NCBI GenBank assembly: GCA_964586775.1
Contig: CAZPJD010000225.1
Span: 464-64,463 of the forward strand
From: an uncultured bacterium
Lineage (GTDB): Bacteria; Lernaellota; Lernaellaia; JACKCT01
Length of the DNA stretch: 64,000 nt
Direction of reading: 5' to 3'
Shown here piece by piece: positions 1,493 through 39,978 of the stretch. The position numbers and the translations under genes were made by a program. The stretch's first letter is position 1, and the number at the start of each line of letters is the position of its first letter. A model generated the notes under the pieces. The model searched no databases, was not told the origin of the DNA, and saw only the letters and a program-made list of their open reading frames with translations.

Positions 1493-1511
1493 TACGCCAT
1501 CCCGGCCCGGG

Positions 1512-2372: not shown

Positions 2373-2660
2373 GACCTCACCGCATCCCGCGTCATGGCCT
2401 CACCGCGCCGCGCTTCATCGCGCCCCCGCGCCCGTTCGTGTTTCGAATGCCCGAAAGTCGTCGCGATTATAGTTCATCGCGTGGATTTTGCACGGTGGTT
2501 TCGCGACGATCGATCCGCGCTCCAGGTGATCGATGACTTCCCGCGGGTCCGGCACATCGCCCCTATCGCCACGTACGTCCGTTATGCTAGTTTTGAACGC
2601 CTGTTCGACGACGCGAGTGATGAACCGGGTCGTCCCCCTGCGCGGATGGAGGATGTTGTC

Positions 2661-9830: not shown

Positions 9831-11189
9831 ATGACGACCGAACTGTCGATCGCCCGCGCGCGTGCCCGCGCCATCTGGCTCATCGCGGCGAGCCTCGCGT
9901 TCTTCGCTTGGATCTCGCCCGCGTTCGCGTTGCTGTTCGCCTTTACGACGCTCGTCGATCGCGCCCTCGCCCGCGCCGCCGCGCGCGAACATTCGCGGTG
10001 GATCGCCGCGGGCGCGAGCGCCCTCATGAACCTCGGCGCGATCCTCGCCTTGCACAACCTGCACCGATTCGCCGACGCCCTCGCGGCATGGCCCTCGCTG
10101 ATGGGCTCGGCGCTCAATGAGGGCGGCACCATCGCGGTGCTGCCGATCGGCTGGTCGCTGCTCTTCGCGCAAAACCTCGCCCATGTTCTGGATGTGGCGC
10201 GCGGGCGCGGGCAACCGACCGAGTGCATCCTCGAGCACGCGCTCGCCGCCGTGTTCTTCCCGCGCATGTGGGCGGGGCCGATGGTCGAACCCGTCGCGTT
10301 TGCCGCGCGAATTCGTCGGCCCGAGCGCCTCACCGGCGAACGCCTCGGCCGCGCGATCTGGCACGGCGCGCTGGGCGCGATCAAGATCGTCGCCGTCGCC
10401 GACTACCTCGCGCTCAACATGGTGGACAAGGTCTTCGATCTGCCCACGCTTTTCTCCACAACCGAGGTGGTTTTCGCGCTGGTCGCGAACGCGCTCGTCA
10501 TCGCCGCGATGTGGTCGGGCGCGTGCGACATCGCCGTCGCCGCCGGACTCGTGCTCGGCTTCGACCTGCCGCAAAGTTTCGCGTCGCCCGCCACGGCGAC
10601 GGGTCCGCGCGACCACTGGCGTCGGTTCCTCGCGCCGCTCACGGCCGCGCTTCGCGAGCACGTTTTCCGCCCGCTCGCGGGCGGGCCGAATGCTTCGCGC
10701 CTGCGCCGTGCACTCGCCGCGTTTGCGCCGCCGCTGCTGGTCGGCTGCGTCGTGGGGCCGAGCGAAACCACGCTCGCCTTCGGCGCGTTTGTCGGCGCGA
10801 CGCTGTTCGTCGCGACGCTCTTCGGACGCAAGACCTCGAACGACAAGCCGGGCATCGGCGCGCGCGCGTTCGGATGGGTTCTCACTTTCCTCGCCATGAC
10901 GGTCGCGTGGACGCTCTGGCGTGCGCACGACCTGCAAACCGTTTCCGATCTCGCGTCGATCCTGCCGCTCGGCATCTACGAAACGCCGAACCTGACCGCA
11001 ACCGTGATCGGCGTTTTTTTCGCGTCCCAGGTGGTCGCGTTCGTGCCCGCGCCATGGGTCGCGAAAACCCGCGATGCATTCGCACGTGCGCCCTGGCCCG
11101 TACAGGTCGCGGCGGGGCTCGCGGTGGCGTGGGCGCTTTGGCGCGTGAACGCGGTGTCGGAAGTGCCCTTCGTCTACGAGCGGATGTGA
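9831..11189 (+). CDS. MBOAT-family membrane-bound O-acyltransferase (AlgI/DltB/PatA-like)
   Basis: Multi-TM 452 aa; conserved MBOAT block 'PRDHWRRFLAPLTAALREHVFRPLAGG' with the catalytic His. Confidence 0.8.
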   Translation: MTTELSIARARARAIWLIAASLAFFAWISPAFALLFAFTTLVDRALARAAAREHSRWIAAGASALMNLGAILALHNLHRFADALAAWPSLMGSALNEGGTIAVLPIGWSLLFAQNLAHVLDVARGRGQPTECILEHALAAVFFPRMWAGPMVEPVAFAARIRRPERLTGERLGRAIWHGALGAIKIVAVADYLALNMVDKVFDLPTLFSTTEVVFALVANALVIAAMWSGACDIAVAAGLVLGFDLPQSFASPATATGPRDHWRRFLAPLTAALREHVFRPLAGGPNASRLRRALAAFAPPLLVGCVVGPSETTLAFGAFVGATLFVATLFGRKTSNDKPGIGARAFGWVLTFLAMTVAWTLWRAHDLQTVSDLASILPLGIYETPNLTATVIGVFFASQVVAFVPAPWVAKTRDAFARAPWPVQVAAGLAVAWALWRVNAVSEVPFVYERM

Positions 11190-19249: not shown

Positions 19250-19400
19250 CGCGAACGCACCAGCAAACGCGCTTGCCAACGCGTCCCCGCGTGCGCACCA
19301 TCGGCCCGACGGGAAGCGGGAGCCGGGACTCCCCGCGGGCTGCAAACTCGCCGGGAACGCCGGGCAGGCGTTCCGTTCGGTTCGACTCCGAATCCCGTCT

Positions 19401-19570
19401 GTGCGGAACCCTCGCAGGTCATGTGGCACAGCCGCCCCCGGCGGTGCGGAACCTTTGCGGGTCATGTGGCACAGCCGCCCCCGCGGTGCGGAACCTTTGC
19501 GGGTCATGTGGCACAGCTGCCCCCCGGCTGTGCGGAACTCTTGCGGGTCATTTGGCACAGCCGCCCCCGG
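19401..19570 (+). repeat. Four tandem REP-like repeats (~43 bp unit: GTGCGGAACCTTTGCGGGTCATGTGGCACAGCCGCCCCCG)
   Basis: Near-identical units with 1-3 substitutions, contiguous and head-to-tail, immediately upstream of the RAYT gene; no unique spacers, so not CRISPR. Confidence 0.7.
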
Positions 19571-19588
19571 CTGTGTAAAACTCCGTTC

Positions 19589-20220: not shown

Positions 20221-22560
20221 TCAGATCTCGTACCAGCAGCCGTCGGCGGCGGTCATGAAGGCGTCGTCGTCGCTGTCGAGCTCGCCGGACTGATCGAGGT
20301 CCGCGCCATCGCACCAGCTATTGCCGGCGTCGCACGACGCACCCTCACCGAAGTTCGTCCACGCCGTGTCGAAGTCGGCCTGATCGTCGGCGTCCACATC
20401 GCCGTCGCCGTCGAGGTCGGGCCGCTCGCAACCCAGAACCGCCCACGAGCAGTCGAGCACGGTGGGTTCCATCGCGCAGTTGGGGATCTCGTTCAGATAG
20501 ATCGCCCCGCCGAAGCCCTGGTGCGTGATGTTGGGAATCTCCTCCCAGTCGCCGTCGACGTTGACGACCTCGTAATGATCGCCGTTGCGCTTGATCGGCT
20601 TGTCGGCCTCGGTGGGGAAGCGGTCCCAATAGCGGTCGTAGGTTTCCGGCCGATCGGCGTAGCCGTTCACCTCGGCGAGGATCTGGCTCCACAAATCCGC
20701 GTCGCTCCACAGCGCGCGCGGCGTGCTGTCGCCGCGATTCAGCACGTCCTCGAACACATCCTGATAGCGCTCGGCGCGCACCCAGCCCTGCGGGTCGTAA
20801 TCGGCGTTGCCCACGCCCGCGATGTGCGCGTACTGGGCGACCTTCTGGAGTTCCTCGATCGCCTCGTTCACGTAATTCGATGGCGGCACGGGCTGCGCCT
20901 GCGCCCAGTCGAGCGTGAGCTGCGCGCTGATGCGGTGCAGCTCGGTGATGTGGAAGAGCGCCTCGCGCGCCTCCTGCAGCAGATCGCCCTTGTTGGCGAG
21001 CTGCGCGTAATACACCAGCGCGAAGGCGGCCATCTCGGGCTGGTCGGTCGCGTCGGCGATCTGCATCAGGATGTCGGCCACGCTCGACCCGCCCAGGTTG
21101 ACGGCGATGCGCATGAGGTCTTCGAGCGACTGGCCGAGGATGTTGAGGTTGTAAATGTCGCCCCAGCCGAGGCCGATGTAGGCGTCATCCATGTTTTCGC
21201 AGGTCTTCGTCAGGTTGCCGGGAACCGGGATGCCCAGCGCCTCGAGCAGCATCTTGATCGCGATGATCTCATACGACCCCGGCGTCTCGACGGGCTCCGT
21301 GGGCGAGGTCAGGCCGTCCGCCGACATCGCCTTGGCCATGTACGACATCTGGCAGGAATTCATCGAGCCGAGCCACTCGGGGCCCTCATCCGCGCCGTCG
21401 GGGCGGATTTCGCCGGCGACGATCAGGTGGTCCTCGTCATAGGGCTCGAACTCGCCCACCGTCATCAGGTTGTAGCCCTCGCCGATGGTGCGATCGCCGA
21501 TGCGCTGCCCGGCGGCCCACGCGCGCTCGGCCGAGGCGCGCACGTCGGCGTCGGCGCCGGCGTCGTTCATCGCCTCGAGCGCGGCGAAGTAGCCCACGCC
21601 GAAATCGGGGAAGTTGTCGCGGCTGTTGTGATTGCCCCAGAAGTAGCCCTCGAAGGGCCCGAGCTGGCTGATCATGTACGACGAGCAGCAGTTCGAGATG
21701 CGCAGGTAGTAGGGCATCTCCTCGAAGACGAATGTCACGGCGTAGTCGCCGGGGCGCAGGATCGACTCGATGCGGAAGTAGTGGTCCGTCGGTTCGCCGT
21801 TGATGGCATACACACCATCGGAGAAGAACGCGTTGATGATCTCTTCTTCGAGCGTGGGCGAGTAGTCCTCGGCGGGGTCGATGGGCGCGCCGTCCAGCGT
21901 GCGCGTCACGGTGCCGCCGGGGCCGTCGATGGTGACGGTAAATCCGGTCTGCCACTCGCGGCAGGTGAGACCGTCGATGCCCTGGATTTCCTCGGCGTAG
22001 GCGAGGCCCTCGAACTGGCGGATCGCGGTGAGGGCCAGTTCGCGCGTGCGGAAGATCTTGTAGGCCTGATACGCGTTGAAGGCTGAGAAGCCGATCCAGT
22101 TGTTGTCCACCGGGTGGAGCTGGACTTCGTAGTCGCTGCCGTCCTTGGCGATGTTCGTGTGGCCCAGCGTGTGCGCGGGCACCACGTCGCCGACGAGCAT
22201 GAAGCGGTTGTACGCCTTGAGCGTGCGGCCGATGCGCTCCTTGTAATAGAGCTTGAAGGCGTCGGCCTTCGTGGTCGGATTCACCCACGGATCGAAGGGG
22301 ATGTCGTCGTCGGCGTCGTCGTCCGTCGTATCGTCGTCGGTCGTGTCGTCATCCGAGGTGTCGTCGTCGCCGGTGTCGTCATCCGGCAGCGGGGGGAACG
22401 TGTCGTCGTCGCCCGTGTCGTCGTCCGCGGCGTCGTCATCCGCCGCGTCGTCGTCCGGGGTGATCGTCGTCGGCCCGGAATCGTCGTCGTCATCGCCGCC
22501 GCACCCCGCGACAAACGCCAGAGCCATCACCACCGCCACCGCCCAACCCCACCTGTTCAT
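20221..22560 (-). CDS. Lipoprotein with N-terminal (DDDx)n acidic repeat tether and C-terminal dockerin/EF-hand-like double Ca-binding motif
   Basis: GGGAGA RBS; 'MNRWGWAVAVVMALAFVAGC' lipobox then 'GGDDDDDSGPTTITPDDDAADDDAADDDTGDDD...DDDTTDDDADDD'; C-terminus 'DLDGDGDVDADDQADF...DLDQSGELDSDDDAF'. Confidence 0.7.
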   Translation of the reverse strand: MNRWGWAVAVVMALAFVAGCGGDDDDDSGPTTITPDDDAADDDAADDDTGDDDTFPPLPDDDTGDDDTSDDDTTDDDTTDDDADDDIPFDPWVNPTTKADAFKLYYKERIGRTLKAYNRFMLVGDVVPAHTLGHTNIAKDGSDYEVQLHPVDNNWIGFSAFNAYQAYKIFRTRELALTAIRQFEGLAYAEEIQGIDGLTCREWQTGFTVTIDGPGGTVTRTLDGAPIDPAEDYSPTLEEEIINAFFSDGVYAINGEPTDHYFRIESILRPGDYAVTFVFEEMPYYLRISNCCSSYMISQLGPFEGYFWGNHNSRDNFPDFGVGYFAALEAMNDAGADADVRASAERAWAAGQRIGDRTIGEGYNLMTVGEFEPYDEDHLIVAGEIRPDGADEGPEWLGSMNSCQMSYMAKAMSADGLTSPTEPVETPGSYEIIAIKMLLEALGIPVPGNLTKTCENMDDAYIGLGWGDIYNLNILGQSLEDLMRIAVNLGGSSVADILMQIADATDQPEMAAFALVYYAQLANKGDLLQEAREALFHITELHRISAQLTLDWAQAQPVPPSNYVNEAIEELQKVAQYAHIAGVGNADYDPQGWVRAERYQDVFEDVLNRGDSTPRALWSDADLWSQILAEVNGYADRPETYDRYWDRFPTEADKPIKRNGDHYEVVNVDGDWEEIPNITHQGFGGAIYLNEIPNCAMEPTVLDCSWAVLGCERPDLDGDGDVDADDQADFDTAWTNFGEGASCDAGNSWCDGADLDQSGELDSDDDAFMTAADGCWYEI

Positions 22561-22755
22561 CGCATGTCTCCCGGTACCGAGTCCTTGAGGGATCGACATG
22601 CTACCAGAGTCGCGTCCCGCGCCCAAGGGTCGGTCGGCACACGCCCCAATCCGCTCCTAATGTCCCGCACGCCACGAACAAACCGATCGGTTCTGGATAT
22701 TCTTGTCCGGATAGGGCTCAATGACATCCCTTAGTGATTTTCATTACACGTCGAT

Positions 22756-25012: not shown

Positions 25013-27874
25013 TCAACAGCCGCAGCCGTCGTCGTCGTCATCGCCGCCGCCGTCCGCCGCCGACGCGTCGTCGTCCGACGTATCGTCGTCCATCGAATCG
25101 TCGTCGGTGATGTCGTCGTCCGCCGTGTCATCGTCGACCGTGTCGTCGTCGTCGGTGTCGTCGTCCAACGTATCGTCATCCGTCGTGTCGTCATCGACGG
25201 TGTCGTCGTCGACGTCGTCATCCGCGTCGTCGTCGGTATCGTCGTCGCCGGGGATCGTGGTCGTCGTGGTCGATGTCGTGGACGTGGTGGTTGCAGTCGT
25301 GGACGTGGTGGTCGTTGTCGGCGTGCCGGTGCTCGGCCATCCCACGACCTCGATGTTGTCGAGGCCCCAGTACTGCGCGTCGAGCCCCGCGTTCTTGTAA
25401 TAGAAACGCACGAAGACCTGCGGATACAGATCGGCTTCGGGCAGGTCGAAGGTCACCGCGCCCTCCTGATCCGCACCCCAGTTCACCAGATTCGTCCACG
25501 TCACCCCGTCGTAGGACCACGCCACCTGCGCGCGGTCGAGCAGGCCGTGCCGATACTCGTGCCGGAAACGCAGTTCGATGCCCTCGTGGTGCGAGCAGTC
25601 GAGCGCGGGCGTGATGAGCTGTTCGTCGAGACGCTGGAACTCGCCCGTCGTCTCCTTATCCGCGGCGACGAAGCGGTCCATCCAATGCGGCGAGCTGCGC
25701 GATCCCGCGTTGTCGCTGTTCCACGTCACGGTGTTCGATCCGCCGTCCACGATCTGCCAGGGACGCGGCTCGAGATCGAAGTTGTCGAAGAAGATGCGGT
25801 CGGGCCCGGTGGGCGACGCGGTCACCTCCACCGTGTTGCCGTCGCAGTTGCCGAAGGGATCGCACGCGCGCACCACGTAGTACCAATCCGCGCCGTTGGG
25901 CGCCCATTGATCGAGCCAGGGCGACTCGGTCGCGGTGTCGATGGGGTCGTCGAAATCCTGAGCCCCGGACGCGTCCGCGCGGTAGATGCTGTAGACCACC
26001 ACGCCCGTGTCGGCCGCGGGATCCCACGTGATCTCGGCCTCGTTGTCGAGGCCCGTCGCGCCGGTCGCGCCCGCGAATGTCGGCGCGGCGCAGTCGGCGC
26101 TTGCGATTTTCGTCTCGACGACGTTGATGCCGCCCTCGCCGTCGTTGGCGTCGGTGTAGGTGACCGTGATCGTGTCGCCGTTCGCGAGTTGCAGCACGCC
26201 GTCGGCCGCGGGCGCGCCGGTCGCGGTGGCGATCTGGCCGCGGAAGAGGCCGTCCACTTCCGCGTCCTCGGTCAGGGCGAGCGTCTCGCCGCCAGGCTCG
26301 GTCGTGCTCTTCACGTTCACGTTCAGCGTGCCCGACAGATCGCCCTCGGTCACGGTGACGCGCACGACGTCGTCGCACGAGTACAGCGCACGGTCGATGG
26401 AGAGCGTCGCGTTCGACGTGACCATCTCGGCGAGCAGCCACCAGTACGCCTCGACCACGTCGATGCGCCCGCGCCCGTAGACGTTGTCCTCGCCGGCCGC
26501 GCCCAGATCGACGGCGGTCTCGTAGAGCGCCATCTTCACCTGCTCCACCGTCGCCTCGGGAAAAGCGCCGCGCAGCAGGATCGCCGCGCCGGTCACCGCG
26601 GGCGTGGCCATCGAGGTGCCGCTCATGGTGCTGTAGTTGTTGCCCGGCACCGACGACATGACGTTGTCGCCGATCGCCGAAACCTCGGGCTTGAGCGTCA
26701 GATTGTCGCAGCGCGACGGCCCGCGCGACGAAAAACTCGTGATCGTCGTGTTGTCCTGCTTGAGCGCGCCCACCGCAAAGGTGTTGAGCGACGTCGTGAT
26801 GCGATTCCCCGGCGAACGCAGCGATTTCGCCGTGGGTCCCTCGTTGCCCGCCGCGAAGAGCACCACCACGCCCGCGGCCTCGGCCGCGTCGATCGCCGCG
26901 TAAAAGTCGTTCGCGCACGACGGATTCGGGATGCCCCACGAGTTGTTCACCGCGTCGGGCACGTCGTCCACCGTGCCGGGGTTGCCGTCGGGATCCGCCA
27001 TCCACTCGAACGCGCCGATCGCGTCGCTGTAGATGTTGCCGCCGGGTACGTCGATCGTCTTCGCGCCGATCCACTTCGCGCCCGGGGCCATGCCGATCTG
27101 GTGCCCCGCGCCGTCGTCGCCCAGGATCGTGCCGAGGGTGTGCGTGCCGTGCGAGCCGGAGTCCGTCGGGAAGGTCTCGCTGCCGACGGGATCGAACCAC
27201 GCGTGCTCGGGCAGCACGCCGCCGTCGAGCCCGCGCCACCGATCGGCGAACGCGGGGTGCGTGGCATCCGCGCCCGTGTCCTGATCGCAGGCCAGCGCGC
27301 CCGTGCCGTCGTAGCCCATCGCCCACAGCTCCGGCGCGCGCGACGCCGTGATGCTGCCCAATATGCCCGTGGCCACGTCATCGGCGGCGATCGCGTCGCC
27401 CACGGCGACCGGTTCGATCAGCTCCAGCGGCGGATCGAGATAGACATTCGCGATGTCGCGCCGCGCGCGCAGCGTTTCGATGTACGCCGCGTCGGCCTCG
27501 ATCGCGACCGCGTTGGCGATCCAGAATGGACGCACCCGGCGCACCGCCGCCCCCGCGCCCGCGAGCGTGCCCAACAGCGCGCCCTGCGTGGACGCGGCCA
27601 TGTCCTGCAATTCCTCGATGACGAGCGCGTGGCGCTGCGCCCGGGTCAGGCGCGCGTCGTCCATGAACGCGGTGAGCGCGGCCAGATCCACCGATTCGGC
27701 CATCGTGAGGTAGATGTTCAGCGTTTCGCCGGGCGCGGCGGCGGCCAGCACGTCCTCGAGCGCGTCGTCGAAACGCGCGGCGTTCGCGACGGAGGGCGAA
27801 ATCGCGAGAAGAATCAGCAGAGCGACAAAGGAAACATGGCGGGAAAAACGCAACGTGGACATGGCAACTCCCAT
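25013..27874 (-). CDS. Secreted subtilisin-like serine protease (S8) with propeptide, FN3 and jelly-roll C-terminal domains, poly-Thr linker and (DDDx)n-GCGC C-terminal tail
   Basis: Signal peptide; catalytic triad blocks 'DTGADATHPAF', 'SHGTHTLGTI', 'GTSMATPAVTG'; C-terminus 'TTTTTSTTATTTSTTSTTTTTIPGDDDTDDDADDDVDDD...DDDDDGCGC*'. Confidence 0.85.
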   Translation of the reverse strand: MGVAMSTLRFSRHVSFVALLILLAISPSVANAARFDDALEDVLAAAAPGETLNIYLTMAESVDLAALTAFMDDARLTRAQRHALVIEELQDMAASTQGALLGTLAGAGAAVRRVRPFWIANAVAIEADAAYIETLRARRDIANVYLDPPLELIEPVAVGDAIAADDVATGILGSITASRAPELWAMGYDGTGALACDQDTGADATHPAFADRWRGLDGGVLPEHAWFDPVGSETFPTDSGSHGTHTLGTILGDDGAGHQIGMAPGAKWIGAKTIDVPGGNIYSDAIGAFEWMADPDGNPGTVDDVPDAVNNSWGIPNPSCANDFYAAIDAAEAAGVVVLFAAGNEGPTAKSLRSPGNRITTSLNTFAVGALKQDNTTITSFSSRGPSRCDNLTLKPEVSAIGDNVMSSVPGNNYSTMSGTSMATPAVTGAAILLRGAFPEATVEQVKMALYETAVDLGAAGEDNVYGRGRIDVVEAYWWLLAEMVTSNATLSIDRALYSCDDVVRVTVTEGDLSGTLNVNVKSTTEPGGETLALTEDAEVDGLFRGQIATATGAPAADGVLQLANGDTITVTYTDANDGEGGINVVETKIASADCAAPTFAGATGATGLDNEAEITWDPAADTGVVVYSIYRADASGAQDFDDPIDTATESPWLDQWAPNGADWYYVVRACDPFGNCDGNTVEVTASPTGPDRIFFDNFDLEPRPWQIVDGGSNTVTWNSDNAGSRSSPHWMDRFVAADKETTGEFQRLDEQLITPALDCSHHEGIELRFRHEYRHGLLDRAQVAWSYDGVTWTNLVNWGADQEGAVTFDLPEADLYPQVFVRFYYKNAGLDAQYWGLDNIEVVGWPSTGTPTTTTTSTTATTTSTTSTTTTTIPGDDDTDDDADDDVDDDTVDDDTTDDDTLDDDTDDDDTVDDDTADDDITDDDSMDDDTSDDDASAADGGGDDDDDGCGC

Positions 27875-29978: not shown

Positions 29979-31547
29979 CTAGCACCCGCATCCGTCGTCG
30001 TCGTCATCGTCGTCGTCGTCGCCGTACGCGGGGATGTCGGTGGACGTGTCGTCGTCACCGGAATCGTCATCCGCCGTATCGTCATCCGCGGTGTCGTCGT
30101 CGGAATCGTCGTCCGCCGTATCGTCGTCGCTATCGTCGTCGCTGTCGTCATCGGTGTCGTCATCGTCGGGTTCGATCAGATCGTCGTCGCCGAAGGGTCC
30201 GCCGCCGGGCAGGATGCCGTAGTACACGCCCATCCAGTAGCCGACGAGGTAGTCCATACCCGGGCCCACATAGCGCTGGTCCTCGCCGTGGTTGCAGCCC
30301 GTCTCGAAGGGCGTCGACTGCCAATACATGTCGGTCCAGTGCCGGTCGTCCAGCTCGCGCGCCTCGGCGGTGATCGGGTCGATGTTGATGAGATCGTTCA
30401 GCCACGGGTACTGGTTGCCCAGCTCGTCGAGCAGCACCGACAGCGGATCGAGCGGCATGTCCGAGCACGTGCGCGCGCGGCGGTAGCTCGGCGCGTCCCA
30501 ATATCGGCCCAACGTGTTGAAGTGGTCGTCCTCGATCCAGTCGTAATCGTCTTCCACGCAATTGCCGAGACGCAGGCAGCCGGTCACGTGCGTCGAATCG
30601 AACCAGGGGTTGTGCGTTCGTTCCACATAGGGGCGGTTGTAGGTCATCCACAGATCGTAGAGTTCCTCGAGCCGCTCGCGATCCGGCCACAGGCGAAACA
30701 CCGCCTGAAAATCCAAATGACGCAGGTTGTTGCCGTAGTACTCGGTGTACTTGTTGTATCCGGCCCAGATGTCCACCGCGAGCACGGGCCGCCACAGGTT
30801 GTACTGCTGGTCGAGCAGTTCCCAAATCTCGGGTGTGTCGATCACGTACGCGGCCTGCACGAGCCACGCGATGCGCTTCATCGGGCCGATCCACGCCGCG
30901 CCGTTGCCCGTGTATTCGCCGTTCTGGTCGGTGATGTTCCAGTCGTTCGTCGTGAGCATCTCGATCACGTCGATGATGTCGTCGCGGATGCCCGCGCGCA
31001 CGTCCTCGTGCTCGGCGAGTCCTTCGAGCGCCTGATACGAGAGCACCATGCCCCACCACCAGCCGCTGTATTGGTCGCGGCTCGTGTGATCGACCCAGTA
31101 GAGCCCCGCGAACTCGCCCTCGCCGTGATTTTTCCAGTCGTTGTCATCGCCCTGGCCGCAGTTCCACGGGGCGATGTCCTCGCCCGCGAAGCGAGCGATG
31201 TAGCCCAGCGTCTGCGTGATCGCCATGGCGGTGCGCATGTATTCGACCACGCGCAGCACCTCGTCGAGCGCGCCCTCGTCGCCCGTGGCCATGTAGCGCA
31301 GCGCCTCGGCGCCCAGGTACATGCCCGTCCAGATCATGCTGTCGCCCTGATGGTGCAGGCAGCCGATCTCGGTACGCGTCTCGTCGGTGAACTCGACCGC
31401 GCCGGTGAGCGCACCGAGGCTTCCGTTGTGCCAGGTCTCGATCCACTCCTGATACGCCTCGGCTTTGGCGTGCAGATCGGGATCGAAATCGGCCCACGCG
31501 GGGGAAACCGCGAGACAAATCGTCAGAATCAACAGCGCGCGTCGCAT
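29979..31547 (-). CDS. Secreted protein of unknown function with C-terminal (DDDx)n acidic repeat ending -DDDDDDDDDGCGC
   Basis: Signal peptide 'MRRALLILTICLAVSPAWA'; Trp/Tyr-rich globular body; tail 'DDDDTDDDSDDDSDDDTADDDSDDDTADDDTADDDSGDDDTSTDIPAYGDDDDDDDDDGCGC*'. Confidence 0.7.
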   Translation of the reverse strand: MRRALLILTICLAVSPAWADFDPDLHAKAEAYQEWIETWHNGSLGALTGAVEFTDETRTEIGCLHHQGDSMIWTGMYLGAEALRYMATGDEGALDEVLRVVEYMRTAMAITQTLGYIARFAGEDIAPWNCGQGDDNDWKNHGEGEFAGLYWVDHTSRDQYSGWWWGMVLSYQALEGLAEHEDVRAGIRDDIIDVIEMLTTNDWNITDQNGEYTGNGAAWIGPMKRIAWLVQAAYVIDTPEIWELLDQQYNLWRPVLAVDIWAGYNKYTEYYGNNLRHLDFQAVFRLWPDRERLEELYDLWMTYNRPYVERTHNPWFDSTHVTGCLRLGNCVEDDYDWIEDDHFNTLGRYWDAPSYRRARTCSDMPLDPLSVLLDELGNQYPWLNDLINIDPITAEARELDDRHWTDMYWQSTPFETGCNHGEDQRYVGPGMDYLVGYWMGVYYGILPGGGPFGDDDLIEPDDDDTDDDSDDDSDDDTADDDSDDDTADDDTADDDSGDDDTSTDIPAYGDDDDDDDDDGCGC

Positions 31548-31578: not shown

Positions 31579-31917
31579 TCACGGCAGGCCCGGAAAGTTC
31601 TCGACGAACTGGATCTTGAGATCGGGGAAGGAATCGACGTACTGCACCTTCAGGTCCGGGAAGTTTTCGACGAACTGCCACTTGCCGCACGCATCGGGGA
31701 AGTGCTCGACGTGCTTGACCTTCAGGTCGGGGAACGACTGCACCGTCTGGATCTTGATGTCGGGGAAATTCGAGACGATCTTGACCTTGCCGTAGAGCTT
31801 GAAGCCCTTGAACGTGCAGTCGGGTCCGACCTTCTTGTCCGACGAACCCGCCGACGACGCGACCAGCGACAGCGCAATCGCGACGATCACCAGACGAACG
31901 AAAGACGGGGTGCGCAT
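31579..31917 (-). CDS. Small secreted tandem-repeat protein (~12-aa 'FPDLKVxxVExx' repeats x5-6)
   Basis: GGGAGGGAGGAG RBS; signal peptide 'MRTPSFVRLVIVAIALSLVASSAG'; DNA-level 33-36 nt tandem repeats; 31 bp upstream of the poly-D secreted protein gene on the same strand; hidden inside larger spurious ORFs in the table. Confidence 0.5.
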   Translation of the reverse strand: MRTPSFVRLVIVAIALSLVASSAGSSDKKVGPDCTFKGFKLYGKVKIVSNFPDIKIQTVQSFPDLKVKHVEHFPDACGKWQFVENFPDLKVQYVDSFPDLKIQFVENFPGLP

Positions 31918-33471: not shown

Positions 33472-33894
33472 ATGTTCGACGTCGGCGGCTCCGAAATCCT
33501 GCTCATTCTCTTCCTCACGCTGCTCGTGATGGGGCCGAAGAATATCCCCAAGATCGCGCGCACGCTGGGCAAGACCATGCAGCAGGTCCGGCGCATCACC
33601 AACGAATTCAAGCATGCGATGGAAGACGAGATCCGAGTGCTGGAACTCGAGGAACTCAAGACGGAGCGCGCCAAAACTTCGGCAAATCGCCCCGCCGAGC
33701 CCGTCGCCGCGCGGTCGAATTCCGCCGATGCCGAGGGTCCCGCCACACCCGCCACGCCGGCGGGGGAGCCGGTCGTCGAGACCGTCAATCCGGCGGCGGA
33801 GATCCCGGTCGAGCGCGAGCGAACGGGAGCGCATCCCACCACGCCGTCCACCGAGACGGCGGCGCGTGGCGCGAACGACGGGGGCGCGGCGTGA
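33472..33894 (+). CDS. tatB: Sec-independent translocase TatA/TatB-family protein (TatB-like length)
   Basis: 'MFDVGGSEILLILFLTLLVMGPKNIPKIARTLGKTMQQVRRI' TM + amphipathic helix, then a long acidic/Pro-rich tail; immediately upstream of tatC. Confidence 0.75.
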   Translation: MFDVGGSEILLILFLTLLVMGPKNIPKIARTLGKTMQQVRRITNEFKHAMEDEIRVLELEELKTERAKTSANRPAEPVAARSNSADAEGPATPATPAGEPVVETVNPAAEIPVERERTGAHPTTPSTETAARGANDGGAA

Positions 33895-34673
33895 AGGAGC
33901 GCGACGCCGAGCTCGCCGGCCACATGACGCTGACGGAGCACCTGACCGAGCTGCGCAAGCGGCTGCTGTGGTGCGTGGGCGCGATCGGCGTGTGCTTTTT
34001 CGCCGCGTGGAATTTTGCGCCGCGCATCTTCGCCCTGTTCATGGAGCCGCTCACGCGCGTGCTGGGCGAGGGCCGGCAGGTGGTGTTCACGTCGCCCGCC
34101 GAGGCGTTCATCACCTACATGAAGGTCGCCGTGACGGTGGGCGTATTCGCGTCGGCGCCGGTGATCTTCTGGCAGATTTGGCGCTTCGTCGCGCCGGGGC
34201 TGTACCGCCGCGAGCGCGCGTATTTCGGCGCGGTGGTGATCGTCGGATCGTTCTTCTTCGTGGGCGGCGCGCTCTTCGGCTACTTCAGCGTCTTCCCCAT
34301 CGGATTCGCCTACTTCATCAAGACCTTCGAGACCGAAACCATCCGCGCGATGATCAGCGTGAAAGAATACTGGAGTTTCGCGCTCACGATGCTCGTGTGC
34401 TTCGGCGTCGCGTTCGAGCTTCCCGTCTTCGTGTTCTTTCTCGCGAGGGTCGGTATCGTCACGCCGCAGTGGCTCTGGAAAAACTTCCGCTACGCCGTGC
34501 TCGTCATCTTCATCGCGGCGGCGATCTTTACGCCGCCCGACATCATCTCGCAGATCACCCTCGGCGTGCCGCTCGTCATCCTCTACCTGCTCGCCACCGG
34601 CGCGGCGTATCTGTTCGGCTCGAGAAAAAAGCCGGTCGAATCCGCGGCCGACGCCGCATCCGCCGACGAGTAG
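33891..34673 (+). CDS. tatC: Twin-arginine translocase subunit TatC
   Basis: 260 aa, 6 TM; 'LTEHLTELRKRLL' N-terminus; 4-nt ATGA overlap with the upstream tat gene. Confidence 0.9.
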   Translation: MKERDAELAGHMTLTEHLTELRKRLLWCVGAIGVCFFAAWNFAPRIFALFMEPLTRVLGEGRQVVFTSPAEAFITYMKVAVTVGVFASAPVIFWQIWRFVAPGLYRRERAYFGAVVIVGSFFFVGGALFGYFSVFPIGFAYFIKTFETETIRAMISVKEYWSFALTMLVCFGVAFELPVFVFFLARVGIVTPQWLWKNFRYAVLVIFIAAAIFTPPDIISQITLGVPLVILYLLATGAAYLFGSRKKPVESAADAASADE

Positions 34674-34680
34674 GCCCCCT

Positions 34681-35325
34681 TCACCGCTTTCGCACGCGGC
34701 CCGTGCTCACGGCCCACCAGCCGTAGGCGAATCCGCCGATGTGCGCCCACCACGCCACACCCGGCGCGCCGGGGTCGCTCATGATCGATCCGAGGATTTG
34801 CATGCCGAGCCAAAGACCGATGAAGATGCGCGCACGCCAGATGAAAAAGATCGGGTAGATGACAATGAGAAAAAATCCCTTGATGCGCGCGGCGGGAAAC
34901 AGATGCAGGTATGCGCCCAGCACCGCCGCCACCGCGCCCGACGCCCCGACCATCGGCACGCGCGATCCCCGCTGCACCACCGCGTGCGCGAGGCACGCGA
35001 CCATCGCGGCGACGAGATAGAAACGCACGAACGCGCCGCGCCCCAGCCGGTCCTCGACGTTGTCGCCGAAGACCCACAGGAACAGCATGTTTCCCGCCAG
35101 ATGCGCGATGCCGCCATGCAGGAACGCGCTGGTGATCGCCGTGACCGGTGTGAGGACCGAATCCCATGCCCACGGATGCAGCAGCTGATAGGGCACCGCC
35201 GCGAAACGCAACCCCGCATCCCGCGCGCCGAGCTGCCACACGAATGCGGCGACATTCGCCGCGATGAGCAGCGTCGTCATCACCGGCGCGCGGCGCGTGG
35301 GGTTGAGGTCGCGATAGGGAATCAT
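34681..35325 (-). CDS. Rhomboid-family intramembrane serine protease
   Basis: 6-7 TM; 'GASGAV' GxSG catalytic Ser and 'AHIGGF' His helix; convergent with tatC (7 bp apart). Confidence 0.75.
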   Translation of the reverse strand: MIPYRDLNPTRRAPVMTTLLIAANVAAFVWQLGARDAGLRFAAVPYQLLHPWAWDSVLTPVTAITSAFLHGGIAHLAGNMLFLWVFGDNVEDRLGRGAFVRFYLVAAMVACLAHAVVQRGSRVPMVGASGAVAAVLGAYLHLFPAARIKGFFLIVIYPIFFIWRARIFIGLWLGMQILGSIMSDPGAPGVAWWAHIGGFAYGWWAVSTGRVRKR

Positions 35326-35432
35326 GCCCGGGCAGGAATAGCACAACGGTCGCGCGGGCGCGACGTGTCGCGCCGATCTTGTTGACGCCGACGCGGCGCG
35401 CGAGAATGATGTGGCGCGACTTTGGGGGTCGA

Positions 35433-36485
35433 ATGTCCATCGCCGCGACGACCGTGACCGAGATGTACGAACGCATGCGCGAGCGCTTGGCGCGCCTCGT
35501 GCCCGAGGCCGAGCTGCGCCTGAAGGCCGAGATCGCGTTCGAGGTCAATCGCCTCAAGGCCGAGCGCGGCGCGATCGTCCTCGGCCACAACTACATGGAG
35601 CCCGCGCTCTTCCACTCGGTCTGCGACGTGGTGGGCGATTCGCTGGAACTCTCGCGGCGCGCCGCGGCGGCGAGCGCGGACCCGATTGTGTTTTGCGGCG
35701 TGCGTTTCATGGCCGAAACGGCGAAGATCCTGAATCCCGAACGCACCGTTTTGCTGCCCGCGAAAAAAGCGGGGTGTTCGCTCGCCGACGGCATCACCGC
35801 CGAAGACGTGCGCCGACTGCGCGAGGCGTATCCCGGCGTGCCGATCGTCACCTACATCAACACCTACGCCGACGTGAAGGCCGAGGTGGACGTGGTGTGC
35901 ACGTCGGGCAACGCGGTGCGCGTGGTGAGGGCGCTCGATTCCGACCTCGTGATTTTCCTGCCCGACGAATACCTGGCGCGCAACGTCGCCGCCGAGACGG
36001 GCAAGACGATTCTCGTGCCGACGGGCGATCTGGATTCGCTCGGGGACGTGCGCGCGCGCGGCATCGGCATGATCGGCTGGCGCGCCCGCTGCGAGGTCCA
36101 CGAAAAATACACGGTGGACGACATCGCGAATGTGCGGCGGCAGTTCCCCGACGTGTACGTGCTCGCGCATCCCGAGTGCCGCCCCGAGGTCGTCGAGGCC
36201 GCGGACTATTCCGGCAGCACGACGCAGATGGTACACCAGGTGAAACAGCACGACGCGGCGCACTATCTGCTGCTCACCGAATGCAGCATGGGCGACAACA
36301 TCATCGCCGAGAACCCCGAGCGCGACATTTTGCGGATGTGCTCGGTGCGCTGCCCGCACATGAACGAGATCACGCTCGAAAACGTGCTCGATTCGCTGCG
36401 CCACGACGCGGAGACGATCGAGGTCGAGGAATCGGTGCGTGTGCGCGCGCGCAAATCGCTCGACCGGATGCTGGCGATCGGGTGA
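35433..36485 (+). CDS. nadA: Quinolinate synthase
   Basis: 'IVLGHNYM', 'VVCTSGNAV', 'HPECRPEV' NadA blocks; ~350 aa. Confidence 0.85.
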   Translation: MSIAATTVTEMYERMRERLARLVPEAELRLKAEIAFEVNRLKAERGAIVLGHNYMEPALFHSVCDVVGDSLELSRRAAAASADPIVFCGVRFMAETAKILNPERTVLLPAKKAGCSLADGITAEDVRRLREAYPGVPIVTYINTYADVKAEVDVVCTSGNAVRVVRALDSDLVIFLPDEYLARNVAAETGKTILVPTGDLDSLGDVRARGIGMIGWRARCEVHEKYTVDDIANVRRQFPDVYVLAHPECRPEVVEAADYSGSTTQMVHQVKQHDAAHYLLLTECSMGDNIIAENPERDILRMCSVRCPHMNEITLENVLDSLRHDAETIEVEESVRVRARKSLDRMLAIG

Positions 36486-36507
36486 GGGCCGAAGGAGAAT
36501 CACGAAG

Positions 36508-37902
36508 ATGCGGACCTACTGCCGGAAGGTTTTGTTCCTTCCCCTCTTGGCCGTATTGCTTCTCACCGGCTGCACAGGAGACGACGATTCGCCTTCGTCG
36601 GACTCCGGCGTAACAAGCGATGACGACTCGGCGTCGGACGACGACACGACCGCCGATGACGACGCGGCGGACGACGATCTCGCGGACGATGACGACGACG
36701 GGCCGAGTTATCGCCCGATCCTGTTCGTGCATGGATTCCTCGAAGACGGCGACGCCTTTCACGCGCAGTCGCAGCGCTTCGCCACGAACGACTACGACCT
36801 CGATCGCGTCTTCGCCGTCGATTACAACACGCTCTGGGCGACGCCGGACGCCGTCGATCTGATCGGCGGGGCGATCGACGAGATCCGCGCGCTCACCGGC
36901 GCCGACGACGTCGACCTGATCGGCCACTCGATGGGCGGGTCGATGGGCGCGGATTATCTGCAGGGCGCCCCCGCGCCGAACCACGTCGCCCACTACGCCC
37001 ACGTGGCGTCCTTCGATTTCGAAACGGCGGGCATCGACGCGCCGATCCTCAATCTGTCGTCCGAGGCCGATGCGGTGGTCGGTGCGCGAGAGATCGACGG
37101 CGCGACCAACGTGGTGCTGCCCGGCCTCGACCACCTGCAACTCGCGACGTCGCCCGAGACCTTCGAGCAGCTCTTCACCTTCTTCAACGGCGAGCCGCCC
37201 GCGACGCTCGAGGTCGAGCCCGCCTCGCCCATCACGCTCTCGGGACGCACACTCGTCTTCGGCACGAACGAGCCCGCGCCCGCGCAGATCGTGCGCATCT
37301 TCGCGGTCGATCCCGCGACGGGGGAGCGCGACGCCGCCGAGCCCGACGCGGTTTTCACGTCCGACGCGACCGGCGCGTGGGGCCCATTCGATGCTGAGCC
37401 GGACACGCACTACGAGTTCGAGATCCGCGACGAGGCCGGGCGCTGGCCGGCGGTGCGTTATTACCGCGAGCCGTTTATGCGTTCGAGCCGCCTCGTGCAC
37501 TTTCGCGTGTTGCCCGATTTCGATTCGGCGTTCGCGGTGCCGTTCAAGCTGCTACCGCTGCTGGGTGATCGCGTCGCCTTTGCCTCGCTCAACCTCAACC
37601 GCGCGGCGATCGCCGGGCGCGACACCTTCACCGTGGACGGAATCGACCTGGCGACCGAAGACGTTACGCCCGCCGACCAGAGCGTTCTCGCGGCGGTGTT
37701 CGCCGATCTCAACTTCAACGGCGCCACCGACGGACCGATCCTGCCCGGCATCGTCGGCCTCTTTCCGTTCTTCACGATCTACGATCTTTTCGCCGATCCC
37801 GGCGTCGGCGATCCCATCCCGATCGAATTCAACGGACGCACTCTGACGATCCGAGGGGACGAGGGCCCCGCCGAGTCGCTCTCCATCGCTCAATTCGACT
37901 GA
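36508..37902 (+). CDS. Lipoprotein lipase/esterase (alpha/beta-hydrolase) with N-terminal poly-Asp tether
   Basis: 'MRTYCRKVLFLPLLAVLLLTGC' lipobox followed by 'TGDDDSPSSDSGVTSDDDSASDDDTTADDDAADDDLADDDDDG'; 'ILFVHGF' and 'GHSMGGS' (GxSxG). Confidence 0.7.
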   Translation: MRTYCRKVLFLPLLAVLLLTGCTGDDDSPSSDSGVTSDDDSASDDDTTADDDAADDDLADDDDDGPSYRPILFVHGFLEDGDAFHAQSQRFATNDYDLDRVFAVDYNTLWATPDAVDLIGGAIDEIRALTGADDVDLIGHSMGGSMGADYLQGAPAPNHVAHYAHVASFDFETAGIDAPILNLSSEADAVVGAREIDGATNVVLPGLDHLQLATSPETFEQLFTFFNGEPPATLEVEPASPITLSGRTLVFGTNEPAPAQIVRIFAVDPATGERDAAEPDAVFTSDATGAWGPFDAEPDTHYEFEIRDEAGRWPAVRYYREPFMRSSRLVHFRVLPDFDSAFAVPFKLLPLLGDRVAFASLNLNRAAIAGRDTFTVDGIDLATEDVTPADQSVLAAVFADLNFNGATDGPILPGIVGLFPFFTIYDLFADPGVGDPIPIEFNGRTLTIRGDEGPAESLSIAQFD

Positions 37903-37962: not shown

Positions 37963-39978
37963 GTGGGCAAGATGAACATCACGGAGCGCCGCGCGTGGAC
38001 GATCTACGGTGCGGCGTGGTGCGTCTGGCATCTGCTCGTTTTTCTCTCGACGCCCGACACCGGCCTGCACATCGGGAATCACGAAGAGGCGATGAGCGGC
38101 AACCTCGCGCGGGCGCTCGTCGAGGGCCTCGCCCTGCCCGCGTGGCATTATCAATACGCCCATCACACGCACGGCACGTTCCTTTACGGCCTGCTGCTCG
38201 CGCCGATCTACGCGATTGGCGGATCATCGATTCTGTGGGTCAAGGCGCTGGGGCTCGCGTTCGCCGCGGCAGGAACGGCGCTGTGGATCGCCCTGGTGCG
38301 CCGCGCCTTCGGGCCGCGAACGGCGGCGATCTTCGCGGCGTGGTGGCTCGTCGCCCCGCCCGCGCTGATGCGGATGCAGCACCTCGCGTGGGCGAATCAC
38401 ATGGAGAGCATCGCGTGGATCGGTGCGATGCTGCTCGTCTTCGCGGGTGCGGACGACTCCGAACCTTCTCCGAAACGCTTCGCGTGGCTCGGCGCGCTCG
38501 CGGGATTCGCGAGTTTCTTCTGCCTGCAGAGCCTGCTCGTCGCCGTGCCGCTCGCGGTCCTGACACTCTGGCGTTGGCGTCGCGCGGCAATTCGGCCCCT
38601 CGCCGCCGCCGTGCCCGCGTTCGTCGCCGCCTACAGCCCCCACTGGCTTTACCAACACGCGATGTATCGCTCCCTCAACCTCGAAGCGAAGCACCCCGAT
38701 CTCGTCGCCCGCGCACGCGCATTCGCCGAGGTCGTCCCCGAGGCGCTCGCCTACGCGTGGCCGATCGTGACATGGCTCGCGGTCGCCGCGGTCGCGGTCG
38801 CGCTCATCTTCGCCATTCGCGAATTCGCGCGCCCGGCTCGCCGCTACACCGATCGCTCCGGGCCGTGGGTGCTGCGCGCGCTCGTGCTCCACATCGCCGC
38901 GTTTTTTGCCGCCAATGTGCTGTCGACCTTTGCCGTCGAGCCCTACGCGCTCGACGTCTATCGATTCCGGTACGTCACGCCGCTCTTTCCCACGGCCATG
39001 GCGATCGCCGCGTGGGCGCTCGCGGCGTGGCCGCGATTCGCCGCCATCGTACTCGCGCCGCTGATCGTCGCCGGTGCGTTCGACGCCCGCGTGCCGCAGA
39101 CGATCGCGTCGGTGGCGGCGCAGGCGCGCGACGGGATTCCCGGCGCGTGGATGTGGGAACTGCGCGGCGACAACCTGCGCCCGATCGTCGAGCAGAACGC
39201 GCCGTTTGCGTGGGGCAACGCGCTGGAGATTCGCGGCGACCGCGACGAGACGTGGCGCGAGATCGCCGACCAGATCGGTCGTTTGCCGACCGAGTGGCGC
39301 GCGCTCGCCTGCGAGACCCTCGCGCTCGATCGCGGCGAGACCGCGCCCGATTTCGTGCGCGCGTCGTGCGGGCCGACCGCCGACGCCTCGTGGCGGCGCG
39401 GACTCGGCCGCCGACAATTACGAATCGTGTTCAACGGCATGTTCCAGGACCCGAGCCCCGAAGCCATCGGCCGCGCGTTTGGGGGCGTTTGCGCGAAGGC
39501 CGACGCCGATCTCGCGCGCGGATTCGCCTACGAATTTCTCGCGCAATACGAGGTGCGCACACACGCGCGTTTTCGCATCGAGGACGCCGCGCAGACGCGC
39601 GCGGCGGTCTCGTCGGTGCTCGCGAGCACGGACGCCGAGGCGTGCGCGGGCGCGGCGATCGCGAACGGGATGGGGCGCTTCGTCGCCGAGCTGGAGATCG
39701 ACCGCGCGCCGTTCACGACACTGTCGCGCTTCACGCCGCTCGATCCCACGCCGGAACGAATGGCGGAGTTCGAGAGCGGTTACGCCTCGGGCATGGCTCT
39801 CGCGTTCATCGCGAAGTGGCGCTGCGCGCCCGGCGATCTGCCACTGCTGCGCACGCCGCAACTCGCCCCGCGCCTTGCCGACATGAGCCTTCGTCTCGAA
39901 GCGCGCGGCGAACGCATGTGCCTCGCGCGGATGCCGGCCGACTGGACAGCGCCGGGCGCGGCCCCGACAATGCCGTGA
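37963..39978 (+). CDS. Polytopic membrane protein, putative GT-C-type glycosyltransferase (resembles 17..1492 in architecture)
   Basis: ~11 TM helices in the first ~370 aa then a soluble C-terminal domain; 671 aa. Confidence 0.55.
   Translation: MGKMNITERRAWTIYGAAWCVWHLLVFLSTPDTGLHIGNHEEAMSGNLARALVEGLALPAWHYQYAHHTHGTFLYGLLLAPIYAIGGSSILWVKALGLAFAAAGTALWIALVRRAFGPRTAAIFAAWWLVAPPALMRMQHLAWANHMESIAWIGAMLLVFAGADDSEPSPKRFAWLGALAGFASFFCLQSLLVAVPLAVLTLWRWRRAAIRPLAAAVPAFVAAYSPHWLYQHAMYRSLNLEAKHPDLVARARAFAEVVPEALAYAWPIVTWLAVAAVAVALIFAIREFARPARRYTDRSGPWVLRALVLHIAAFFAANVLSTFAVEPYALDVYRFRYVTPLFPTAMAIAAWALAAWPRFAAIVLAPLIVAGAFDARVPQTIASVAAQARDGIPGAWMWELRGDNLRPIVEQNAPFAWGNALEIRGDRDETWREIADQIGRLPTEWRALACETLALDRGETAPDFVRASCGPTADASWRRGLGRRQLRIVFNGMFQDPSPEAIGRAFGGVCAKADADLARGFAYEFLAQYEVRTHARFRIEDAAQTRAAVSSVLASTDAEACAGAAIANGMGRFVAELEIDRAPFTTLSRFTPLDPTPERMAEFESGYASGMALAFIAKWRCAPGDLPLLRTPQLAPRLADMSLRLEARGERMCLARMPADWTAPGAAPTMP

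Follow-up and report, generated by a model that had tools for sequence, protein, structure and literature searches.

A recurrent poly-Asp tail ending in Gly-Cys on unrelated exported proteins of Lernaellota and its possible role as a C-terminal anchor

Why should unrelated secreted proteins of one bacterium end in the same way? The question is raised by a 64,000-nucleotide (nt) stretch of DNA from an uncultured bacterium of the lineage Lernaellota (assembly GCA_964586775.1, contig CAZPJD010000225.1, positions 464 to 64,463; hereafter the window, numbered from its first letter). In it an S8 subtilase, an exported protein encoded at 29979..31547, a Kelch beta-propeller protein and a Cys-repeat protein all carry a signal peptide and close with an acidic, Asp-rich tail that has Gly and Cys at or near its end (Table 1). 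An earlier note, made from the sequence alone, had described these four tails on unrelated domains, and their coordinates and endings were verified in the sequence. Among the 393 six-frame open reading frames (ORFs) of at least 80 amino acids (aa) in the window, two end in GCGC, against 0.001 expected. We conclude that the shared tails are genuine and go far beyond what chance would give, and that they amount to a C-terminal tag which recurs, under selection, on exported proteins that are otherwise unrelated.

The spread of the tail was followed by a census, a DNA-pattern scan for DDDGCGC-stop over 185,579 species genomes, which returned at least 108 loci. Among the matches listed, at least 96 are long ORFs that close with an Asp-rich tail and DDDGCGC-stop, and they are distributed over seven metagenome-assembled genomes (MAGs), one of them named FEN-1099, as at least 31, 31, 22, 5, 3, 3 and 1. 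The 17 matches from other taxa among those listed are all short strings of non-coding appearance or end in TGG. All three stop codons are used and, among the matches listed, GCGC is written by 38 different 12-nt strings; the tail-bearing MAGs span 44–66% G+C. This variety of stops, codings and base composition indicates that the peptide is under selection, rather than the base composition or a repeat in the DNA. The strict DDDGCGC pattern catches a minority of the endings, and judging from unselected endings the true number of tails per genome is probably above one hundred. The tag is proteome-wide in the lineage. A phmmer search with the tail alone as query gave only 4 matches, since composition correction strips the signal.

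Homologues of the 29979..31547 protein and of the S8 protease were found in Candidatus Lernaella, Candidatus Alcyoniella, and MAGs named 'Deltaproteobacteria', one of these being the FR-FEN-1099-1 assembly, and the tail is retained in orthologues down to ~35% identity, though some orthologues are without it. Two checks that the earlier note had proposed, for other proteins of the genome or its relatives with an Asp-rich GCGC terminus and for the tail in orthologues, thus both came out positive. We know of no cultured member of Lernaellota. The tail-bearing homologues place in this phylum (= FEN-1099), whose habitat is saline and anoxic sediments and lakes (PMC9324843).

The conserved part of the tail is small. 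In the orthologue family of the 29979..31547 protein, a Cys lies within the last three residues in all 45 Asp-tailed members; the first Cys is at position -3 in 41 of them, 37 have Gly at -4, only small residues (Gly, Cys, Ala and Ser) are seen at -2 and -1, and nine of the 45 have a single Cys. The interior of the tails is nearly free of Cys (5 of 3640 residues). Among the fetched loci, 25 Asp-tailed ORFs had not been picked by the pattern, and 23 of these also end in a Gly/Cys motif, in forms such as GCGC, GGCA, GCCGC, GCAC and GMCG. When the unselected sets were pooled and the Cys was placed by script, two residues followed the first Cys in 77 of 105 tails, and rare tails had 4–12 residues after it, or a whole helix with RRR. 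Overall, 20–40% of tails carry one Cys only. The conserved element is one Cys at -3 preceded by Gly, not the GCGC tetrapeptide, and the spacer ahead of it evolves fast. The single-Cys tails argue against the view that the tail depends on a disulfide within Cys-Gly-Cys or on a metal site made of two thiols, and this view was rejected; of the earlier proposal of a sorting tag or a thiol- or metal-mediated anchor, the recurrent selected tag stood. Some S8 relatives end in GCGCWF or GCGCGF.

Tail length has a median of 64 residues (range 26–203), and the composition is 54% Asp and 0.5% Lys+Arg, with a longer run of Asp (median 7) just before the Gly-Cys. The dominant unit across 114 tails is DDD plus two other residues, and the tail of the 29979..31547 protein is predicted by AlphaFold2 to be disordered. 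At the DNA level the S8 spacer had been described as a 12-nt, GAC-rich repeat. A repeat exists, but it is inexact and its period is mixed, at 12 and 15 nt, corresponding to DDDx and DDDxx units; Tandem Repeats Finder gave periods of 15 and 45 nt with 69–79% matches, and no exact repeated word in 25013..25330 exceeds 17 nt, the one of this length being in the poly-Thr part. The expectation that tail length would vary was confirmed, as between orthologues of 92–96% identity the tail takes 10 of 14 and 5 of 5 gap columns, with GCGC unaltered. Thr accounts for ~10% of tail residues overall, and poly-Thr linkers such as the two in Table 1 stand ahead of the poly-Asp in some carriers only; as the window also encodes several GT-C-like membrane proteins, these linkers raise the question of O-glycosylation.

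The proteins that carry the tail have export in common. With gene starts and signal peptides judged by simple rules, a type I signal peptide was seen on inspection in ~80 of 84 full-length carriers (70 by a strict pattern), and a lipobox-like site in one of the 84. Their bodies form at least 41 sequence clusters, and the families represented include Peptidase_C25, S8, M28, Kelch, RCC1, PKD, BNR, the purple-acid-phosphatase N domain, DUF2961, FGE-sulfatase and an amidase-like protein. The body of the 29979..31547 protein is predicted to be an (alpha/alpha)6 barrel (predicted local distance difference test score, pLDDT, 89), with a weak structural likeness to GH9/GH76 hydrolases and sugar epimerases; from the modelled fold, it probably represents a carbohydrate-active enzyme family without a Pfam model. 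Its product was not on record in an exact-sequence look-up.

No transmembrane segment follows the tail in any of the four window proteins, in agreement with the earlier note. In the GCGC-ended tails the stop comes two residues past the first Cys, and in 93 of 94 relatives' loci no hidden helix was found within 180 nt downstream of the tail stop, the sole hydrophobic stretch being the signal peptide of the next gene. A hairpin and a run of A, common to the convergent cytochrome c552 gene, lie ~20 nt from the S8 stop, and the GCGC stop of 29979..31547 is ~60 nt ahead of an arginyl-tRNA synthetase gene. Readthrough, recoding or a split gene as the source of a helix was ruled out by the use of three stops, the terminator after the S8 stop and the lack of a downstream helix.

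The strongest clue to the function of the tail is its mirror-image relation to, and alternation with, the N-terminal lipoproteins of the same lineage. Here the earlier picture was incomplete, as lipoproteins that begin Cys-Gly-Gly-polyAsp in the same window had been missed (Table 1). The mature N-terminus of such a lipoprotein, Cys-Gly-Gly-Asp5-9-(DDDxx)n-domain, is the mirror of domain-(DDDxx)n-Asp5-9-Gly-Cys-Gly-Cys, and the linkers are alike (52% Asp at the N-terminus vs 54% at the C-terminus; Lys+Arg ~0.5–1%). In 701 kb of related loci, 27 ORFs have a lipobox Cys followed by poly-Asp, 114 have the C-terminal tail and none has both. The lipobox was tested as [LVI][ASTVI][GAS]C at the end of the N-terminal signal peptide. 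Within the (alpha/alpha)6 family, 44 members have the tail only, 35 the lipobox only, 16 neither and 1 both (Fisher p = 1e-12, a value inflated by shared ancestry, the lipobox paralogues being largely one clade), and the sole member with both has no poly-Asp after its lipobox Cys. Stronger evidence than this p-value is given by six to seven independent switches in the close clade: six tail-less close orthologues have an independently acquired lipobox (P0024, P0031, P0033, P0040, P0052 and P0060), and another, P0039, has a helix and RRRR instead. The lipoprotein 20221..22626 ends in ...AADGCWYEI and its orthologue (L064) in ...AAPGCWYDL, a conserved near-terminal Gly-Cys with aromatic and acidic residues.

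Other anchors were also found at the place of the tail. S8 orthologues P0110, P0119, P0124 and P0126 have a Cys motif, helix and RRR there, and score 10.7–19.8 bits against the MYXO-CTERM model TIGR03901.2 (cutoff 20). Remote S8 homologues have a type IX secretion system (T9SS) C-terminal domain in place of the tail, and some S8 orthologues have no tail. In locus L063, a GH5-like enzyme (753-1922, minus strand; WNEPN motif) with a signal peptide ends in GGSGGCGG, a helix and RRKK, and it shares an 8-kb block with three DDDGCGC-stop genes that have no helix; its C-terminal signal has no NCBIfam match. The window S8 protein itself has a choice-of-anchor J domain (NF038128, 30.7 bits vs a cutoff of 30) directly upstream of the tail, and by its name this family would stand beside alternative C-terminal anchors. 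The tail occupies a site where other anchors occur.

Considering the above results, we favor, as a reading evenly poised between right and wrong, that the tail is a lineage-wide C-terminal anchor of Lernaellota/FEN-1099 in which the Cys at -3 would be covalently modified, most likely with a lipid. The lipid-anchor reading is favored because the tails resemble the predicted cleavage product of MYXO-CTERM proteins, and because Gly/Asp and acidic motifs mark surface lipoproteins: in Acinetobacter and others, lipoproteins are displayed on the surface by type II secretion when a Gly/Asp motif follows their Cys (PMC12802150), and in Bacteroidota the signal that sends lipoproteins to the surface consists of acidic residues next to the Cys (PMC5080379, PMC6222051). 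In the model that we propose, the protein would be exported by an ordinary Sec signal peptide, and its folded domain would be followed by a disordered spacer of ~30–200 residues nearly without positive charge, (DDDxx)n plus ~5–9 Asp, and then by the end, Gly-Cys-x-x-COOH. The thiol of the Cys at -3 would be the attachment point, most likely for lipid, and the last two small residues may be tolerated, or trimmed as in CaaX processing. The protein would then be tethered to a membrane, probably at the cell surface, through the poly-Asp as a long anionic leash, which may also be a sorting determinant. Such a tag would be a functional mirror image of the lineage's N-terminal lipoproteins (lipid-Cys-Gly-Gly-Asp5-9-(DDDxx)n-domain), and in an evolutionary view it may be the MYXO-CTERM signature (GCGC) minus the helix and Arg cluster that myxosortase removes.

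One specific form of this model, which we put forward tentatively and would sooner expect to fail than to hold, is a helix-independent extracytoplasmic 'Cys-x-x box' pathway, in which an envelope enzyme would lipidate a Cys three residues from a free C-terminus and Rce1-like trimming could follow. If it were true, bacteria would have in the periplasm an equivalent of the CaaX/Rab processing of eukaryotes, the tail would be the first prokaryotic C-terminal lipid-anchor signal without a transmembrane segment, and its 'pre-cleaved' substrates would expose the transferase postulated for MYXO-CTERM.

Several points weigh against a lipid-modified anchor. The main difficulty is that, without a helix, nothing obvious keeps the Cys at the membrane for Lgt-like enzymes, and anionic lipids should repel a chain of poly-Asp, except where cations form a bridge between the two. 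The limitation of positions -2 and -1 to small residues suggests that the tetrapeptide may be read as a unit and not trimmed. Part of the apparent exclusivity of tail and lipobox comes from shared ancestry, as noted above, and orthologues P0034, P0036-38, P0113-115 and P0120 have neither tail nor lipobox, which indicates that anchoring is dispensable. No candidate transferase was found for the tail Cys, and a motif scan of the window and the 701 kb of related loci, a sample covering a small part of each genome, returned no CPBP/Rce1-like protease.

Other explanations share some of this evidence. The near-terminal Cys might be a tether without lipid, joined by a disulfide or other thiol linkage to a partner in the envelope, be it another tail or a protein of the outer membrane or S-layer, with poly-Asp as a spacer only. 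Export into an oxidising compartment speaks for it, as does the absence of a lipid transferase from the results of the motif scan above, the strict need for one Cys fits a mixed disulfide, and the lipoprotein 20221..22626 and its orthologue, with their ...GCWYEI and ...GCWYDL ends, could supply the partner thiol. However, the alternation with lipoboxes and MYXO-CTERM-like signals and the sharp preference for -3 would be left unexplained, no conserved partner was found, and we regard this tether as unlikely. Poly-Asp binds calcium minerals strongly. A tail of 54% Asp nearly without Lys or Arg might bind Ca2+, Mg2+ or Fe, minerals, or cation-bridged lipopolysaccharide or exopolymer and so retain exoenzymes, the Cys being a soft-metal ligand; the carriers are mostly exoenzymes, for which retention would be useful, and the habitat of the lineage is saline, anoxic sediments and lakes (PMC9324843). 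Nevertheless, ordinary lipoproteins also have poly-Asp behind their lipidated Cys, in the role of a linker and not of an anchor, Asp-based binding needs neither a strict Gly-Cys at -4/-3 nor an almost Cys-free interior, and the replacement of the tail by helix-type sorting signals points to membrane anchoring. Binding of cations or minerals is thus an improbable main function in our view.

A pure targeting signal, read by type II or another outer-membrane translocation system with the protein then released and the Cys serving recognition only, seems very unlikely to us. Both MYXO-CTERM proteins and Gly/Asp-motif lipoproteins depend on type II secretion (PMC11980579, PMC12802150) and the carriers resemble T9SS or PEP-CTERM cargo sets, but the published Cys motif serves anchoring, TraA being exported without MYXO-CTERM (PMC11980579), and the lipobox alternation likewise suggests anchoring. 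Finally, the region is repetitive and its length varies, as would be expected of low-complexity ends made by slippage, or of an artefact of assembly or gene calling, with no function at all. This explanation is hardly credible and is effectively refuted by the position-specific protein conservation, the 38 codon strings, the 44–66% G+C range, the three stops, the excess of GCGC endings in the window over expectation and the recovery of the tail in independent assemblies from several sources.

The coordinates of the tails and of the mirror-image lipoproteins are collected in Table 1. The end of the Kelch protein has one Cys, and its ...GGCA ending, seen in 5 of the 25 unselected Asp-rich tails, fits the common single-Cys class. 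The ending of the Cys-repeat protein fits the rare extended class, a less certain assignment, and extended endings like it also occur in S8 orthologues P0129 (GGCGRNRDSYSN) and P0152 (ECCGGYDS). Among relatives, a Kelch homologue and homologous Cys-repeat regions bear canonical tails. The mechanical ORF of the Cys-repeat gene opens at 1434 (1434..4712, plus strand), though Met 2661 (MSRKAAALAVMLTVLAVCAAVF...), the start given in the earlier note, is plausible; the region upstream of it appears to be non-coding or to belong to the opposite strand.

Table 1. Tail-bearing proteins of the window, the parts of their tails, and the lipoproteins with a mirror-image N-terminal anchor.
Feature	Position	Strand	Details
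S8 subtilase gene	25013..27874	-	signal peptide ~27776..27874; Peptidase_S8 domain aa 199-469; tail at 3' end
Choice-of-anchor J domain of S8 protein	25346..25786	-	aa 697-843; directly upstream of tail
Poly-Thr/Ser linker, S8 protein	25250..25330	-	
Poly-Asp spacer, S8 protein	25028..25249	-	74 aa; DDDx/DDDxx units; last residues DDDDD
Terminal Gly-Cys-Gly-Cys, S8 protein	25016..25027	-	stop TGA 25013..25015
Exported protein, predicted (alpha/alpha)6 barrel	29979..31547	-	signal peptide MRRALLILTICLAVSPAWA; tail at 3' end
Poly-Asp spacer, protein 29979..31547	29994..30191	-	66 aa; last nine are Asp
Terminal Gly-Cys-Gly-Cys, protein 29979..31547	29982..29993	-	stop TAG 29979..29981
Kelch beta-propeller gene, variant tail	48789..50033	-	signal peptide; stop TGA
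Poly-Thr, Kelch protein	48939..49097	-	
Asp/Gly block, Kelch protein	48798..48938	-	ends ...GGGGCA
Terminal Gly-Cys-Ala, Kelch protein	48792..48800	-	one Cys, at -2
Cys-repeat protein, extended variant tail	2661..4712; tail 4560..4709	+	stop TGA
Parts of Cys-repeat tail	4560..4670; 4671..4691; 4692..4709	+	acidic stretch; GGCCGCG; DNGTDD
N-terminal anchor, lipoprotein 20221..22626	22480..22515	-	lipobox FVAG-Cys-GGDDDDD, then (DDDxx)n; no C-terminal tail
N-terminal anchor, lipase-like lipoprotein 36439..37902	36559..36588	+	lipobox LLTG-Cys-TGDDD, then poly-Asp
N-terminal anchor, lipoprotein gene ending at 55384	57499..57534	-	lipobox IASA-Cys-SGGDDDDDDDD

The neighbourhood of these genes in the window was inspected for enzymes that might act on the tail, and it holds no sortase-like gene. 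A rhomboid at 34681..35346 (minus strand), considered as a rhombosortase, was rejected, being GlpG-like and well below both the GlpG and the rhombosortase cutoffs; it adjoins a TatC-like gene (33891..34673, plus strand), and no link of the rhomboid to the tails was found. The polytopic membrane protein 9831..11189 (plus strand) is weakly DltB/MBOAT-like (E = 9e-7) and is grouped with large membrane proteins of PMT_2/TPR type (7439..9781, 17..1492 and 37963..39978). MBOATs acylate substrates outside the cytoplasm, so that this protein could speculatively be a candidate for acylation of the Cys, but O-acylation of polysaccharide is far more likely. Elsewhere in the window, four tandem copies of a 43-nt unit at 19394..19575, each with the inverted repeat GGCTGTGC...GCACAGCC, lie in an intergenic region after a fatty-acid oxidation gene and look like repetitive extragenic palindromic (REP) elements; no Rfam family matches anywhere in the window, these repeats included. 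At 31601..31678, within a gene for a small signal-peptide protein (~31579..31900, minus strand), a 33-nt coding repeat gives 11-residue 'FPDLKVxxVxx' repeats.

If the carriers are tethered, each genome would encode dozens of cell-bound, and not freely secreted, proteases, phosphatases and carbohydrate-active enzymes, and the ecological role of the lineage would have to be reread accordingly. The tag is short and might also serve as a handle for surface display. A literature search for a C-terminal or inverted lipobox, the GCGC motif and lipo-invert, together with the founding paper on Lernaellota, found no description of the helix-less tail, nor of the lipo-invert model.

Established prokaryotic C-terminal signals consist of a motif, a membrane helix and a basic cluster, or of a folded domain as in T9SS, and the tail breaks this design. 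PEP-CTERM, LPXTG, GlyGly-CTERM, JDVT-, Synerg- and CGP-CTERM and the T9SS C-terminal domain (PF18962) are found at this position on cargo of similar kinds, but they have a helix and basic cluster or a folded beta-sandwich. The tails match no Pfam or NCBIfam family, and scans of the isolated tails and of 62 family members gave low-complexity noise only. NF058595, the 'lipo-invert putative C-terminal anchoring domain', is a related idea by name only and is set apart by its scores: no tail matches at the cutoff of 37 bits, and below it the model reached 13.8 bits (E = 0.055) on a lipoprotein, over its N-terminal signal peptide and poly-Asp, and E = 0.076 on one member of the aligned family, at a position not reported. 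RTX proteins of type I secretion differ as well, having GGxGxD repeats and an uncleaved C-terminal signal without a signal peptide, whereas the tailed proteins have signal peptides and DDDxx repeats.

Closer likenesses are found in systems that modify a Cys. In CaaX and Rab CXC/CC prenylation the signal is also helix-less, with a Cys at a set position, one to four residues from a free C-terminus; GCGC would correspond to the CXC form, and rare endings such as CSFL and CSFI recall CaaX. The substrates of prenylation are cytosolic, however, and those of the tail are Sec-exported; no prenyltransferase came to light, no search aimed at one having been made. The resemblance is formal only. Like the GspN-dependent and Bacteroidota Gly/Asp lipoproteins, the tail has, beside the point of anchoring, a Cys with Gly as its neighbour and acidic residues beyond, and with the lineage's own lipoproteins it shares the identical type of poly-Asp linker, the two forms being interchangeable among paralogues and orthologues. 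The polarity is reversed, and the tail Cys would not be terminal in the mature chain unless trimmed; the Lgt/LspA/Lnt route as known cannot apply to it, as the signal peptide has no lipobox.

The closest relation is to MYXO-CTERM, which according to Haft's review is reportedly confined to Myxococcota. As Guo, Haft and Wall describe it, an invariant Cys in a 'generic GCGC motif' is followed by a helix and then an Arg cluster. In their model a possibly Lgt-like enzyme lipidates the Cys, myxosortase then removes the helix, and type II secretion delivers the protein to the surface; every substrate has a signal peptide, and most are hydrolases or adhesins of the surface (PMC11980579; 10.1101/2023.06.07.544157). 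Myxosortases are Rce1 homologues, and TraA without MYXO-CTERM is still secreted, the Cys motif being needed for anchoring (PMC11980579). The tail is like MYXO-CTERM (TIGR03901, with MrtX) in its invariant-Cys motif, often GCGC, placed C-terminally after a disordered region, in its dozens of copies per genome and in its signal-peptide-bearing surface hydrolases and adhesins, and the predicted mature end of MYXO-CTERM proteins after cleavage, ...Gly-Cys-lipid, is close to what the tail would encode directly. It differs in having no helix and no Arg cluster, in stopping two residues after the Cys, in its phylum and in its obligatory poly-Asp spacer, and no helix-removing protease would be needed. 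TIGR03901.2 (cutoff 20 bits) gave no match at E <= 10 in seven isolated tails (four from the window and three from orthologues) and none at E <= 1 when the aligned 29979..31547 family, 62 members in all, was scanned. The earlier statement that the tail matches none of the known signals is thus right as to membership in MYXO-CTERM, yet it overlooked that GCGC is the MYXO-CTERM signature. Judged by sequence comparison, the tail is not a MYXO-CTERM member and is best seen as the GCGC signature without its helix.

A tag that stops two residues after its key Cys would need recognition of a free C-terminus. The enzyme that modifies the MYXO-CTERM Cys is still being sought (PMC11980579), and a lineage that does without the helix, and would do without the protease that removes it, narrows the candidates for this machinery, with substrates that are naturally minimal, a spacer and four residues. 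The tail looks like a new member of the known group of Cys-containing C-terminal sorting signals, and like an apparently undescribed way of tethering a protein without a membrane-spanning segment.

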